NCBI GenBank assembly: GCA_013387205.1
Contig: WARV01000010.1
Location: 765 to 64,764 of the forward strand
Reading direction: 5' to 3'
Length of the DNA: 64,000 bases
Origin: Patescibacteria group bacterium
GTDB taxonomy: Bacteria; Patescibacteriota; Doudnabacteria; UBA920
Below the pieces are notes generated by a model. That model was not told the DNA's origin. It was given only the letters and a program-made list of their open reading frames with translations, and did no database searches. The position numbers and the translations under genes are program-made. Below are positions 37,194 through 57,976 of this stretch, in pieces (position 1 is the stretch's first letter; every line of letters begins with the position of its first letter).

Positions 37194-37640
37194 TTACAGC
37201 TTACTTAACTCTTCCTTAAACTCATCTACATCTTCAAATTTTCGATAGACCGAAGCAAACCGAATATAGGCGACTTTGTCAATTTTTTTAATTTTCTTAC
37301 TGACTATTTCCCCTATTTCCAGGCTTTTTATTTCTCCGTCCTTGCTCTTCTTTTGGATTTCCTGCTCAATGCCTGAGATGAGCTTGCGCAGGGTGTCGTC
37401 TGTATGTTCCCGTTTTTCAAAGGCCCGCTTTATGCCCCGCTCCAGCTTTTCCCGGCTGTAAAGCTGCCTGGCCCCGTCTTTTTTTACGACCGTCAGGTCC
37501 AATATTTCAATGACTTCGTAAGTACTAAACCTAAAATCGCACTTTTCACATTCTCTCCTGCGCCTGATGGCATCTCCGTCGTCCACCGGACGGCTGTCTA
37601 ACACCTTGGTGTCAGCGTTCTGGCAATTGGGGCAACGCAT
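37194..37640 (-). CDS. nrdR: Transcriptional repressor NrdR
   Basis: CPNC, VLDSR, IRRRRECEKC, ATP cone, VAYIRFASVY. Confidence 0.98.
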   Translation of the reverse strand: MRCPNCQNADTKVLDSRPVDDGDAIRRRRECEKCDFRFSTYEVIEILDLTVVKKDGARQLYSREKLERGIKRAFEKREHTDDTLRKLISGIEQEIQKKSKDGEIKSLEIGEIVSKKIKKIDKVAYIRFASVYRKFEDVDEFKEELSKL

Positions 37641-37808
37641 TTTAGTATTGATTAGTCTTCTTAATTGCCGTTTAAAGGCTTAAATTGCTTTTGTGGGATG
37701 GGTTTTCGGCCTTTTTGTATCTTTTAGTGGCGATAAAAAACCCGCCCTCCCTAAGCTGTTTTTAGCTCTCAGTTGTGGTTTTTATTTAGATTTCTTAAAA
37801 AACCTTTT

Positions 37809-37864
37809 CTACCATATATGGTAGATACCTTAAATATCATAATACTACATATAGTTTTGGTCAA
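37809..37864 (-). promoter_or_regulatory. Tandem NrdR boxes overlapping the nrdR-nrdJ promoter
   Basis: CTACCATATATGGTAG (37809-24) and ATACTACATATAGTTT (37842-57) fit acaCwAtATaTwGtgt; TTGACC-17-TATGAT. Confidence 0.85.
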
Positions 37865-37943
37865 AACTTTAAAAAACTCCAATGTTTTAAATATTTATCC
37901 CTCTTCTCCCCCCACGATATCCACAGAAAAATTATTACAACAT

Positions 37944-37984
37944 AAAAAGCCGCCGCGTTCCCCTCCTAAGAAACGCGGGCGGCT
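37944..37984 (-). terminator. Intrinsic terminator at the RT stop
   Basis: GC-rich stem 37949-59/37972-83 followed by TTTTT on the minus strand. Confidence 0.75.
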
Positions 37985-38969
37985 ACCATCCCCAATTAAG
38001 TTGATGGACTCTTTGCCCTAAGGCATCAAACTTTTCCAGCAGTGCATAAGGCAGGGTTTCTTTTATGGCAAAACCCATATAACCTTTTGCCGCCTGCCAA
38101 GCATGGTCATGTTCCAGCCCGTGGTCCAACATGTACTCTAAATGATGCAAAGACTTTCTTAGCGTACGCTTGAACCGTTTGGTATTTGAGATGCTATCCG
38201 AAACGATGTTTAATCCTAACATGCGGCACATGCCGCCATGGCTTATTTGCCGAATCTTATGGACATCAAACATCTTTTTTACTTCTGACAGGATTCCGGC
38301 TCTGGCAAATTTCGGAAATTCCGGTTCCTGGCTACTGAAAAACAAATTATCAGCGTATCGGTTATAGACCAAACAATGCCTGTCCGCCCAGGTTTGCAGT
38401 TTATCATCAAGCGGAGAAAAGCAAAGCTCAAACAAACGAGGACTGGTACAGGCTCCCTGCGGCAATTTGCCACCGCAAGAAAACCATTCCATCCCGGAGG
38501 CATAGGCGCGGGATATGTCACCGACGGTACAAAGATCGGCAATCATCCAAGAACAATAAAACGAAAGCTTGGGCGCGCCGAGCCCATAAACAGCTTTAAA
38601 AACTTGGTTATGGCTGATGGATGAAAAAGCATGCCTTAAATCGAAGCACAGCATCGATTTAAATCCCTTATGGCTTGCCACGGCCTGCCTGCAACTCCCA
38701 CCCATAAACCCAAAACTTTGTATGCTGCTGCAAAACTTTGACAAAATGCTCTTGTTCACCGTATCTTGCACAGCCTTCAGTTCCTTGTTAGGAACAAATA
38801 TTGGCCTTGTGGTTCCATCCTTGTTTGTCTTTTCCCACTTCTTGTAATACAAATGGTGTTTGTTCTGTCTAAGGTTGCCGATAAGGTAATAGAGATTAAA
38901 CTCTTCACTCAGTTTCAGCTTGCCATGTAGCCATGGCAAAGTAAAAACCACTTCACGCTGCTCAAACAT
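37983..38969 (-). CDS. Retron-like reverse transcriptase (328 aa) with YADN motif
   Basis: KDGTTRPIFVP..LKAVQ, SFGF, AVASH (region X-like), FDLRHAFSSI, LPQGACTSP, YNRYADNLFFS, MLG (region Y position); SD AAGGAGG places the start at 38969. Confidence 0.88.
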   Translation of the reverse strand: MFEQREVVFTLPWLHGKLKLSEEFNLYYLIGNLRQNKHHLYYKKWEKTNKDGTTRPIFVPNKELKAVQDTVNKSILSKFCSSIQSFGFMGGSCRQAVASHKGFKSMLCFDLRHAFSSISHNQVFKAVYGLGAPKLSFYCSWMIADLCTVGDISRAYASGMEWFSCGGKLPQGACTSPRLFELCFSPLDDKLQTWADRHCLVYNRYADNLFFSSQEPEFPKFARAGILSEVKKMFDVHKIRQISHGGMCRMLGLNIVSDSISNTKRFKRTLRKSLHHLEYMLDHGLEHDHAWQAAKGYMGFAIKETLPYALLEKFDALGQRVHQLNWGW

Positions 38970-38990
38970 GGAAAGCCTCCTTAAAATTTT

Positions 38991-39110
38991 TTCTGCCGCC
39001 AATCATGCGTTAGAAGAAAAGTAATCGCATACAACTGACGACTGCCAGAGTTCTGACAGCCGGTCCGGACCAACCTAGCGTATGGCTGGACATGTTGACT
39101 GGCGGCAGAA
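38991..39110 (-). ncRNA. Putative retron-type msr/msd RNA (~120 nt)
   Basis: 15-bp terminal stem TTCTGCCGCCAGTCA/TGATTGGCGGCAGAA (one G-U) enclosing three hairpins; begins at the predicted TSS. Confidence 0.75.
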
Positions 39111-39115
39111 GTCTT

Positions 39116-39144
39116 AGTATATAACTTTGAATTAACAATTTCAA
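39116..39144 (-). promoter_or_regulatory. Sigma70 promoter of the ncRNA-RT unit
   Basis: TTGAAA(39139-44)-17-TATACT(39116-21). Confidence 0.8.
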
Positions 39145-39154
39145 GGGTGATATC

Positions 39155-39190
39155 CAAAACAAAAACCTCCGGGGGCACAGCCGGAGGTTT
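39155..39190 (-). terminator. Terminator insulating the RT unit from the upstream gene
   Basis: AAACCTCCGG-loop-CCGGAGGTTT followed by TTGTTTT. Confidence 0.75.
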
Positions 39191-39212: not shown

Positions 39213-39650
39213 CTATTCTATCAGCATGGAATATAATTTATCCAAACTGAATTTTACGGGAGCCTTTTTTTCGGTGTAGGCTCCGGCTACAGCCGGCCCC
39301 TGGGGCACTGACTGGTAGCTTGCCGGCTCAACAAACTTTTGAAGCCCGGCTATTGCCACTATTGACTCCGAGCTGTTGTCCATGACCCAGCTAGCATTGT
39401 CCTTATACATGGCGTAGTCCGCTTTAACCGGCTCAAACAAATTCATAGCCAAAAAGTTGCTATATGAATTTGCGGCGCTGTCGATTACTGCCACGACTTT
39501 TTCCGGGGCAAACGGGTTAGGCAGCTGGTTTTCCATTCCGGCAAAACTGGCATTGCTCGCTGAAGCTCCGAGCAAGAAGAACATGGAAAACAACGCGACG
39601 CCGGCTAATGACATAACCTTAGCCGGAGTTTCTTCTGTTAAAAATTTCAT
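39213..39650 (-). CDS. Hypothetical exported/membrane-anchored protein
   Basis: N-terminal hydrophobic segment; PAVAGA motif. Confidence 0.7.
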   Translation of the reverse strand: MKFLTEETPAKVMSLAGVALFSMFFLLGASASNASFAGMENQLPNPFAPEKVVAVIDSAANSYSNFLAMNLFEPVKADYAMYKDNASWVMDNSSESIVAIAGLQKFVEPASYQSVPQGPAVAGAYTEKKAPVKFSLDKLYSMLIE

Positions 39651-55012: not shown

Positions 55013-57289
55013 ATGAGTAAACCGTTAATCATAGTTGAATCACCTACCAAAGCGAAAACCATTTCGCGTTTTTTGGCCGGCCAATATGCGGTGGAAGCCA
55101 GCATGGGGCACGTGCGCGATTTGCCGAAAAGCAAACTGTCTATAGATGTCGAGCATGATTTTGAACCCACTTATATTATCCCGCCTAAAGCCAAAGAAAC
55201 CATATCCAAGCTGAAAAAACTTTCCAAAGACGCGCAGGAAATCATTCTGGCAACTGACGAGGATCGTGAAGGGGAAGCGATTTCCTGGCATTTGGTGCAG
55301 GCCTTAGGCCTTGGCAATGAGACTGACATAAAAAACGGGCAGGAAGACAGGCGCATCAAGCGCATTGTTTTCCACGAAATCACCAAACAGGCCATTGAAG
55401 AAGCCATGAAGAACCCGCGCGACATAGACTTGCATTTGGTTGACGCCCAGCAAGCCAGGCGCGTTTTAGACCGCCTTGTCGGTTATGAATTGTCCCCGTT
55501 CTTGTGGAGGAAAATTAGGTATGGTTTGTCTGCCGGGCGCGTGCAGAGCGTGGCTGTCAGGCTGATTGTCGAGCGCGAGCGCGAAATTGAAAAATTCAAG
55601 GCTGAAGAATATTGGAGCATTGAAGCCAAATTGTCCAAACAGCAAAGCGATAAGGTTTTTGTTGCCAAGTTGCAAAAAATCGACGGCAAACCTGTCGGCA
55701 AAATGGATATTAAGGCCGAAGCAGAGGCAAAAACAATCGTTAGCGATTTAAACGGCGCTAAATACCAGGTTAAAGACATTACCACAAAAGAAGTGAAGCG
55801 TAACCCTGCTCCCCCGTTCACTACATCCACCCTGCAGCAGGAAGCCGCCCGCAAGTTCGGCATGTCAGCCAAACAGACCATGGTCATTGCCCAGCAATTA
55901 TACGAAGGCATCGAGCTTGGCGAGGAAGGCAGCGTAGGGCTCATCACTTACATGAGAACCGACAGCTTGAATTTGGCGCAATCGGCTTTGGAAAAAATCA
56001 AACAAGTAGTGGCGGAATCTTTCGGCAGAAATTACACCCTGGAAGTTCCACGCCATTTTACCAACCGTTCCAAAGGCGCCCAGGAAGCCCACGAAGCCAT
56101 TAGGCCGACAGATGTTACCAGAAAACCTGCTGATGTCAAAAGGTTTTTGGACCGCGGGCAATATAAAATTTACGACCTTATCTGGAAGCGCACCATTGCC
56201 TGCCAAATGGCCCAGGCCGTTTTGGAACAGACTGCGGTAGATATTGCAGCCAAAGATAAGTATGTCTTCAGGGCCAACGGGCAAACCATAAAATTTGACG
56301 GCTTCATTAGGGCATACACCGAAGGTACGGATGAAAAAGCTGAAGATGAAATTGAGGGCGTATTGCCGGAACTAAGCCTGGAAGAAATGTTGAAGCTCCA
56401 TGAATTACTGCCATTACAGCACTTTACCGAGCCGCCGGCCAGGTACACCGATGCCACCTTAATTAAGGCTTTGGAAGCCCATGGCGTTGGCCGCCCATCC
56501 ACTTACGCCCCGACCCTTTCCACCATCCAGGACCGCGATTACGTGGAAAAAATCGACAAAAAATACCGTCCGACCGAAACCGGCACTTTGGTTAATGACA
56601 TGCTCGTGGAAAATTTTCCGGAAATCGTTGATATTAATTTTACTTCGCACATTGAAGAAGAATTCGATGACATTGCCGAAGGGAAAATCGGCTGGGTGAC
56701 GGTGACCCGTGAATTTTACGATCCGTTCAAAAAACATTTAATCGAGAAAGAAGCGACCGTGGAAAAGCAAGTGGAAGTTTCCACCACTCCCTGCCCGCAC
56801 TGCGGCAAGCCGATGCTGATAAAATTCGGCCGTATGGGAAAATTCCTAGCCTGCCCGGATCCGGAAAGCAAGGTTACAATGCCCATGCCGGAAGAAGCGG
56901 CAAAAATTGCAGAACTGACCGAAAAGACCAAAGGGGAAAAATGCCCGCTTTGCGGCGGCCCCATGGAAGTAAAGCGAGGCCGCTTCGGGTTCTTCCTTGG
57001 CTGCGCCAATTACCCAAAATGCAAAGGCATCTCCAAAATTTGGAACAAAACCGGCTTTAAATGCCCTGCGTGTCTTGCATCAGAAGGACGCAAAGATAAC
57101 CCGGGCGATGTTGCGGAAAAGAAATCCCGCGGCCGCGGCAAGCCATTCTATGGCTGCACCAGGTATCCAGACTGCAATTTTGTCATGAACAAAAAACCAG
57201 AATCGCAAACTGACATAGACGAAGCACACAAGCAATGGCTGGCTAATCCTCCAAAACCTAAAAAAGTATTTGCAAAAAAAGTAAGCTAA
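55013..57289 (+). CDS. topA: DNA topoisomerase I
   Basis: IVESPTKAKTI, ATDEDREGEAI, SAGRVQS, ITYMRTDS, C-terminal Zn ribbons. Confidence 0.98.
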   Translation: MSKPLIIVESPTKAKTISRFLAGQYAVEASMGHVRDLPKSKLSIDVEHDFEPTYIIPPKAKETISKLKKLSKDAQEIILATDEDREGEAISWHLVQALGLGNETDIKNGQEDRRIKRIVFHEITKQAIEEAMKNPRDIDLHLVDAQQARRVLDRLVGYELSPFLWRKIRYGLSAGRVQSVAVRLIVEREREIEKFKAEEYWSIEAKLSKQQSDKVFVAKLQKIDGKPVGKMDIKAEAEAKTIVSDLNGAKYQVKDITTKEVKRNPAPPFTTSTLQQEAARKFGMSAKQTMVIAQQLYEGIELGEEGSVGLITYMRTDSLNLAQSALEKIKQVVAESFGRNYTLEVPRHFTNRSKGAQEAHEAIRPTDVTRKPADVKRFLDRGQYKIYDLIWKRTIACQMAQAVLEQTAVDIAAKDKYVFRANGQTIKFDGFIRAYTEGTDEKAEDEIEGVLPELSLEEMLKLHELLPLQHFTEPPARYTDATLIKALEAHGVGRPSTYAPTLSTIQDRDYVEKIDKKYRPTETGTLVNDMLVENFPEIVDINFTSHIEEEFDDIAEGKIGWVTVTREFYDPFKKHLIEKEATVEKQVEVSTTPCPHCGKPMLIKFGRMGKFLACPDPESKVTMPMPEEAAKIAELTEKTKGEKCPLCGGPMEVKRGRFGFFLGCANYPKCKGISKIWNKTGFKCPACLASEGRKDNPGDVAEKKSRGRGKPFYGCTRYPDCNFVMNKKPESQTDIDEAHKQWLANPPKPKKVFAKKVS

Positions 57290-57299
57290 AGTTTTAAAA

Positions 57300-57334
57300 T
57301 TTAAACCCGCCTCTTAAAGAGGCGGGTTTAAATT
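57300..57334. terminator. Hairpin terminator after topA
   Basis: TTTAAACCCGCCTCTT|AAAGAGGCGGGTTTAAA. Confidence 0.7.
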
Positions 57335-57592
57335 TCACCCCCAGCTCCTGTGGCATATATTATAGCGGCTTTGCAGGAAGGACCGATGGCTATCTAAAAA
57401 ATTTCAAAGAGGAGAAATGATCTGCAACTTATTAGACAAAAAATAAGGCGGTGCCGGTTCTATACGCATAAGCTTTAAAGCTAATAGGACCGGTTTTTTC
57501 GCATATATGCTTTTAAAAATTTTTACACAGAAAATACTCTTGACTTTAAAAAATAACAGGCGTATATATATAGTAAACAGCCAAGAGCTCTT

Positions 57593-57976
57593 ATGGAGGA
57601 AAAAGTGAGCAAAGACGGGCGCCTGAAAGTCCTGATAGTTGAAGACTGCGATGTTGTCCGAAACTTCATCAGTGCTTACTTAAGCGCTGAAAACTACCAT
57701 GTTGTAACCGCCGAAAATATTCCAGGAGCGCTGCAAGCAATCCAAGACAATAACGGCACCATTGACGCCGCAATTATAGACTTGGTGCTTCCCAAAGCCT
57801 TGCCGCCTGTAATAAACGGTGGCGATATCGCCAAAATTGTCAGGGAATCCTCTCCCAGAGCCAAAATCGTACTGACAACAGGGTTCCCCATTAACGACGA
57901 CGACCCAAGGATTCAAGGGGCGGCTTTATTACCAAAGCCTTTCACCCCAAAAGACCTGCGGACAGCTTTGCAGTAA
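57593..57976 (+). CDS. Single-domain response regulator (receiver)
   Basis: VLIVED, IIDLVLP, LTTG, LPKPF. Confidence 0.9.
   Translation: MEEKVSKDGRLKVLIVEDCDVVRNFISAYLSAENYHVVTAENIPGALQAIQDNNGTIDAAIIDLVLPKALPPVINGGDIAKIVRESSPRAKIVLTTGFPINDDDPRIQGAALLPKPFTPKDLRTALQ

Follow-up and report, generated by a model that had tools for sequence, protein, structure and literature searches.

A compact, conserved and effector-less reverse transcriptase–RNA cassette with a YADN active site in Patescibacteria

This work describes a two-part cassette, consisting of a reverse transcriptase (RT) and a structured RNA, which is real, conserved and effector-less. The cassette lies on the minus strand of a 64,000-nucleotide stretch of DNA from a small-genome bacterium of the Patescibacteria group (contig WARV01000010.1, positions 765 to 64,764; this whole stretch is referred to here as the window). 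It is the most compact form of a clade of RTs with a YADN active site, a clade for which no description was found in the literature searched. Judging by the anatomy of its sequence, the cassette would work like a retron, and it fails four of the features by which retrons are defined. We favor its interpretation as an orphan-retron-like cassette that would make a short branched DNA, with the resulting particle acting as an anti-phage bait or sensor, and we give this reading a probability of roughly 0.45. The features of the cassette, in window coordinates and in 5′-to-3′ order on the minus strand, are as follows.

39155–39190, minus strand: terminator of the upstream host gene, outside the cassette (stem-loop 39190–39163 plus U tract)
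39116–39144, minus strand: predicted sigma-70 promoter, TTGAAA-17-TATACT (10 of 12 matches)
38991–39110, minus strand: structured non-coding RNA of 120 nt, msr-msd-like (fold, covariation, RNA model)
39096–39110, minus strand: 5′ arm of the terminal stem, a2-like (97.6% of cells paired)
39099, minus strand: candidate branching G by presumed role, RNA position 12, G-U paired in all five close loci
39063–39091, minus strand: first msr-like hairpin, variable in sequence (83% paired)
39039–39062, minus strand: family-wide conserved hairpin with a 7-bp core and a 4-nt loop starting AA, the predicted RT recognition element (20 distinct copies)
39003–39038, minus strand: predicted msd-like template (up to 36 nt) that includes a short hairpin of 8 bp at 39005–39030 (fold, relatives)
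38991–39005, minus strand: 3′ arm of the terminal stem, a1-like (pairing with 39096–39110)
38976–38981, minus strand: Shine-Dalgarno sequence, AGGAGG
37983–38969, minus strand: retron-like RT of 328 aa with no fused domain (ATG at 38969; YADN codons at 38346–38357)
37943–37978, minus strand: intrinsic terminator directly past the RT stop codon (stem-loop 37978–37953 plus U tract)

The promoter, the 15-bp arms, the Shine-Dalgarno sequence, the RT gene and both terminators all lie where an earlier interpretation of the same DNA, made from the letters alone (the sequence-only reading), had placed them. In at least four of the five close loci, a −10-like hexamer stands 4 to 7 nt ahead of the 5′ arm. 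The unit had also been called insulated, which stands for its 3′ end, where 18 of 20 family loci have a hairpin plus T tract directly past the RT stop codon. The 5′ insulation was dropped: the terminator on that side belongs to the host gene, occurs at 20 of 26 loci that have no RT and is not part of the unit. Three DNA sequencing runs from one study gave no differing letters where they covered the DNA; the YADN codons are covered, again with no differing letter, by contigs of runs X1 and X2 (one study, possibly the source of the assembly itself).

The RNA had been assigned to the RT-sense strand, and folding bears this out: that strand folds at −55.9 kcal/mol (z of −6.9, with 0 of 200 shuffles as low), versus −47.3 kcal/mol for the opposite strand. 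Its terminal arms pair through 14 Watson-Crick pairs out of 15 and one G-U pair, and an enclosing helix of 15 bp was reached by none of 300 dinucleotide shuffles (longest, 13 bp). The three inner hairpins proposed earlier are all present in the minimum free energy structure of the 120-nt RNA, but the third is out of register in relatives. Four close relatives keep the whole architecture (124 to 137 nt), including the terminal stem predicted for homologues, which is retained with compensatory changes. Across these five sequences, 94% of cells are paired (25 to 51% in slid controls) and 15 of the 32 pairs have changed on both sides, a result that none of 500 shuffles equalled; the sequences are related and much of the signal comes from one divergent row (L005), such that these values are strong, yet are not a probability. 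Covariation is seen in the terminal stem, with both-side change in 11 of 17 pairs, and in the two msr-like hairpins. An RNA model built from the five sequences was run on 146 genomes of the order, where it matched none but the five of origin, and it gave no match at 26 RT-free host loci. No Rfam family matched the 120-nt RNA at a meaningful score, and a search of the cassette's own genome for further copies of the template or RNA gave no matches beyond 14 to 16 nt.

The second msr-like hairpin extends well past the close relatives. As an 18-nt element it occurs upstream of the RT in 20 of the 24 loci examined; the misses are L003 and L025, whose RTs lie outside the family, L024, which has 180 nt of flank, and L012. 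With identical loci removed and L032, L034 and the second unit of L018 added, there are 20 distinct copies, in all of which six of the seven core pairs are kept, variants being mostly G-U on the sense strand. The hairpin recurs upstream of RTs down to ∼30% identity, and more divergent versions were recognized by eye at L033, L035 and L039. A family RNA alignment of 12 sequences was of low quality beyond the hairpin and was left out of the counts. When the hairpin pattern was searched for in viral contigs, the 44 exact matches had no family RT within 2.5 kb and were read as chance. Separately, seven loci of distant members (L009, L010, L018, L020, L021, L022 and L034) have, in the interval from the 3′ arm of the RNA to the RT ribosome site, an additional strong hairpin that ends in a T-rich tail. 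This hairpin, a possible attenuator or processing site, is missing from the window's subgroup.

Retron priming Gs are described as lying in or just past the stem end (PMC6868368) and as often being preceded by TTA (Khan et al., preprint). Counted from the inner end of the stem, the candidate at 39099 is four pairs in; it takes part in a G-U pair in all five close loci, with three further pairs beyond it in this subgroup, and in L005 it follows TTA. It lacks the TAGC context in which most retron priming Gs stand, being followed mostly by U instead of C. For each of 15 distant copies the two best enclosing helices were considered: in 9, one of them stops immediately before a G opposed by another G (about 6 of 11 lineages in our own grouping, for a rough p of 0.01), and in the other 6 neither helix gave a G-opposite-G. 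Copying from the G to the conserved hairpin gives a predicted template of at most 36 nt, and the RNA anatomy thus agrees, at about 30 to 36 nt, with the room for ∼30 nt estimated in the sequence-only reading. The stretch from the hairpin to the 3′ arm measures 35 to 39 nt in the close group and 43 to 62 nt in distant members where it can be assigned. It is weakly conserved (identity of 0.53, versus 0.42 when shuffled), and the predicted DNAs fold weakly (−1.2 to −6.7 kcal/mol). By this prediction, the DNA is likely shorter than that of any named retron, the named retrons being the set compared. The 45- to 48-nt RT-DNA of Ec48 is called the smallest E. coli msDNA in the title of its report (PMC8989520).

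RVT_1 is the only domain in the RT. The profiles that it matches best are those of retron RTs (136 bits for PADLOC II-A/III-A), its score lies below every curated NCBIfam cut-off, and its best match among solved structures is the Ec86 RT (5.8e-26, with group II at 1e-7). An Atlas search with the RT returned generic RT clusters only. Thirteen proteins of 320 to 333 aa are 49 to 63% identical to it, and a profile search of 1.84 billion representatives retrieved 89 proteins at E values up to 1e-30. Motif C, which the sequence-only reading had passed over, is YADN rather than YADD. Among the 77 best hits (E values up to 8e-34, with no selection on the motif), 73 have a motif C ending in DN, 3 have one ending in DD and 1 is truncated; among 73 weaker hits, mostly ordinary retrons, DN occurs in 4. 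In an alignment of 72 members chosen for DN and for length, D110, D207, N208, R204 and G172 are invariant, and Q171 (70/72), R55 (71/72) and H100 (65/72) are nearly so. Region X reads AVASH here instead of NAXXH, with Ala in place of Asn in 60 of the 72 members and the His retained in 65; region Y reads MLG instead of VTG, the family form being xLG (Leu in 72 of 72, Gly in 71). The Asn of NAXXH is also reported missing from two validated retrons (PMC6868368). The unusual motifs do not vary over ∼75 clusters at 50% identity. In five close RT genes, all with open frames, silent sites are saturated (pS of 0.76 to 0.89) while pN is 0.19 to 0.35, which therefore points to selection, not decay.

Distant members of the clade carry acidic N-terminal extensions of 43 to 309 aa with no known domain, whereas the window's subgroup has no extension. 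In five proteins (P0034, P0055, P0047, P0058 and P0076), the extensions are also aromatic-rich, span 130 to 309 aa and have no Pfam or Atlas match; a scan of 20 proteins, 12 of them long or divergent members of the DN clade, found no extra Pfam domain in those 12. A second small group with DN in motif C (P0128 and P0130) keeps NAXXH and branches beside the YADN clade as a possible intermediate. The nearest YADD relatives (P0087, P0091 and P0104) have two RT domains per chain, and P0091 also bears a Ser/Thr kinase domain.

Retron-type DNA synthesis by the cassette appears fairly probable from these sequence features. By analogy with retron biochemistry, the RT would grip the conserved hairpin through its C-terminal region and prime from the 2′-OH of G 39099, forming a 2′-5′ linkage. 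Up to 36 bases would then be copied into a short branched DNA, host RNase H (genes for which are present in the genome) would trim the RNA, and the resulting RT-RNA-DNA particle would hold the DNA as a phage bait or sensor. With YADN in its active site, the enzyme may be slow or may not work. Changing the second aspartate to Asn disrupts retroviral RTs, and in the Ty1 RT the same change (D211N) leaves an enzyme that still polymerizes in vitro, ∼223-fold slower, and does not support transposition (PMC2148107). The Ty1 variant is engineered, in contrast to the natural, clade-fixed Asn seen here. An alternative is accordingly that the enzyme makes little or no DNA, its RT fold serving as an RNA scaffold within an RNA-protein particle, or that it adds only a few bases. 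Several features would suit such a particle: an Asn fixed at the second aspartate position (73 of the 77 best hits), the missing Asn of region X, the slowness of the equivalent Ty1 mutant and a very short, unconserved template. Against it, no variation is seen in the two essential aspartates or in the residues of the dNTP site, and distant members keep a branch-point geometry that would be needless without priming; we consider this alternative unlikely.

To place the YADN clade, 44 family rows were compared with 48 reference rows, labelled by best PADLOC hit rather than by type strain and including Ec107-like and outgroup rows. The family rows make up one side of a branch with SH-aLRT support of 100. 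No grouping with Ec107-like or outgroup rows was seen among them, here or in the outgrouped tree below, and the RT scores ∼100 bits on the profiles of the Ec107-like clade 2 branch and of clade 11, versus 300 to 450 for assigned rows. A quick outgrouped tree (19 family rows, 33 references, and three group II plus two DGR RTs as outgroup; simple model and quick search, with clades I-B and IV–X thinly sampled or absent) nests the clade among retron-labelled rows with support of 97. An AU test, on the other hand, did not reject the clade being joined to the outgroup (p of 0.61), and the tree with that topology is 10 log-likelihood units higher. The sequence-only reading's expectation that the RT falls within retron clades is thus favored by the nesting and left undecided by the AU test; by sequence, the YADN clade is placed nearest to retrons, either inside them or as their sister. 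Identity as a group II intron was rejected (31.7 bits against a cut-off of 300, no Rfam family and a long branch to the outgroups), as was identity as a DGR (no template/variable repeats found and a long branch to the outgroup).

Several defining features of retrons can be recognized in the sequence. The non-coding RNA lies directly upstream of the RT, on the same strand and behind one predicted promoter; the complementary ends, 8 to 30 bp in retrons, measure 15 bp here and 15 to 21 bp in the five close loci; and two hairpins fit the one to three msr hairpins with 7- to 10-bp stems. The order of parts (a2, hairpins, variable template, a1, RT) is likewise that reported for retrons (PMC6868368). 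In place of a single long msd hairpin of 10 to 50 bp, there is one of 8 bp here and one or two small hairpins in relatives; in place of YXDD with both aspartates there is YADN; and NAXXH and VTG are replaced by AVASH and MLG. Given the lack of YADD, NAXXH, VTG and a long msd hairpin, and a placement either inside retrons or as their sister, we do not file the cassette as a retron.

Besides the Ty1 mutant, three known systems offer the closest comparisons. Retron-Eco1 (Ec86, type II-A) likewise has a terminal stem, two msr hairpins and an RT of similar size, but it combines YADD, NAXXH and VTG with an RT-DNA of 85 to 86 nt and an NDT effector, where the cassette has YADN, AVASH, MLG, a template of at most 36 nt and no effector. 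Retron-Eco6 (Ec48, type IV) also gives a very short product and has the Asn of NAXXH and the Thr of VTG replaced (PMC6868368); unlike the cassette, it has a product of 45 to 48 nt and a two-helix membrane effector and keeps both motif C aspartates (PMC8989520). Orphan retrons (the Ec107 branch and clade 11; PMC7736814 and PMC13712802) share the plan of RNA plus RT with no associated protein. The YADN clade is a lineage separate from these, and its active site and much shorter template are its own. Clade 2 is reported mostly from Gammaproteobacteria and clade 11 from Actinobacteria, whereas the YADN clade is found in Patescibacteria. Stand-alone retrons were described for the Retron-Eco5/Ec107 branch of clade 2 and for clade 11 in an analysis of 1,928 RTs, which also stated the question of effectors in trans (PMC7736814). 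The sequence-only reading, which set its effector-less unit against characterized anti-phage retrons with a co-operonic or fused effector, is corrected on this point: retrons lacking an effector were known before.

The family RT is present in 8 of 146 genomes of the order, and this patchy presence, at a spacer that takes inserts, fits an accessory gene. In a sample of the phylum, 7 of 401 genomes gave family matches, those of at least one genome being ordinary YADD retrons; related records are named as Patescibacteria lineages. Viral contigs yielded one distant RT (24%), and plasmids and phages yielded distant retrons only, at up to ∼34% identity. No YADN retron-like clade is described in the literature searched, a search with subscription papers mostly outside its reach. 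The text and eight supplements of the 2026 SPIRE survey make no mention of Patescibacteria, CPR or YADN; as the survey kept only RTs of at least 160 bits (PMC13712802), this cut-off probably drops the YADN clade. According to a review, DGRs dominate the RTs of CPR bacteria (PMC8632793). The genome studied here also has a DGR-like locus (L041, contig C12, ∼55400–57700), with a YADD RT, an Avd-like gene on the opposite strand and an upstream candidate target gene.

In the window, the RT sits between a 145-aa host gene that follows ftsZ and the nrdR-nrdJ pair. ORF lists for 20 plus 15 loci contain no neighbor gene shared across sites, and 57 of the 61 ORFs of the window include no retron effector and no defense island. 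By these lists, the terminators past the RT stop and the domain scan, the cassette lacks the co-operonic or fused effector of tripartite anti-phage retrons (types I–XIII). The earlier claim that no effector lies in cis is thereby supported, and so is the view that this absence is a trait of the family and not a loss in this copy. The 145-aa upstream gene (39213–39650) was rejected as an effector since it is a host gene, present in 43 of 95 family genomes. The nrdR-nrdJ pair here and the prs-pyr genes at L005 hinted at nucleotide metabolism, a connection that was set aside as it is not common to distant loci.

An effector could instead be encoded elsewhere, making the cassette a true tripartite retron whose dedicated toxin is held in check in trans. 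Mestre et al. raised this for orphan retrons (PMC7736814), and both the acidic extensions of 43 to 309 aa in distant members and an NDT-like gene on contig C20 of the same genome speak for it. The latter gene is overlapped by a Nudix-like gene (L135:851-1875), and its distribution is unlinked to the RT. It was rejected as a trans effector, the NDT family being found with this query in none of the five other RT-bearing family genomes. The window's subgroup has no extension, and in several lineages the cassette is found at numerous unrelated sites, without a companion gene. We regard a dedicated effector in trans as distinctly unlikely.

The spacer between the host gene and nrdR (window positions 37640–37930; L044–L072) is an insertion hot spot, ranging from 342 to >1,400 nt in relatives. 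Among the 30 best loci of the upstream host gene, 4 have the RT and 26 do not, several of the latter loci holding other inserts. The spacer retains a TGTGGATA motif and palindromes, which we take to resemble NrdR boxes. An 8-bp direct repeat, TGGATATC, flanks the cassette at ∼39148–39155 and 37917–37924; its interpretation as a target-site duplication was rejected because the repeat is not seen in relatives.

Such settings invite the view that the cassette is a selfish element, spreading by its own reverse transcription with no benefit to the host. It has its own promoter and terminator and occurs at unrelated intergenic sites, and one locus (L018:477-3277) holds two divergent family RTs in tandem, each with a promoter-like region, an RNA of its own and a terminator. 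Against this, there is no endonuclease or integrase, genomes have one copy each with no RT-free copies of the RNA, and the flanking repeat is confined to this locus among its relatives. Copies at the same site are old, as their ∼53% identity and saturated silent sites indicate. In our judgment a selfish element is improbable. That the cassette is what is left of a decaying retron, its effector already lost, as its non-canonical catalytic and retron motifs and a stop near the start at one family locus (G142) might hint, is very nearly dismissed, being largely refuted by the invariance of those motifs across ∼75 clusters, by purifying selection and by an RNA structure kept through compensatory change.

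For the orphan-retron-like cassette, we tentatively propose, by analogy, an anti-phage role in which output would come from the particle itself or from ordinary host proteins, with no dedicated toxin. A broader and more doubtful form of this proposal is that the YADN clade constitutes a third, Patescibacteria-centered lineage of effector-free RT-RNA systems, with a two-aspartate RT making the shortest natural retron-type DNA (30 to 36 nt) and the particle alone as both sensor and actor.

The function of orphan retrons has been posed as an open question (PMC7736814), for which this 1.2-kb cassette is close to the smallest possible test case: one protein of 328 aa and one RNA of 120 nt, with the start and end of the DNA product predicted. 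Whether an RT with a natural YXDN motif is active can be tested on it as well, and it may offer a very compact RT-RNA pair for producing single-stranded DNA in cells. If the YADN clade is indeed a third effector-free lineage, it would show what the job of retron DNA is when no toxin needs restraint.
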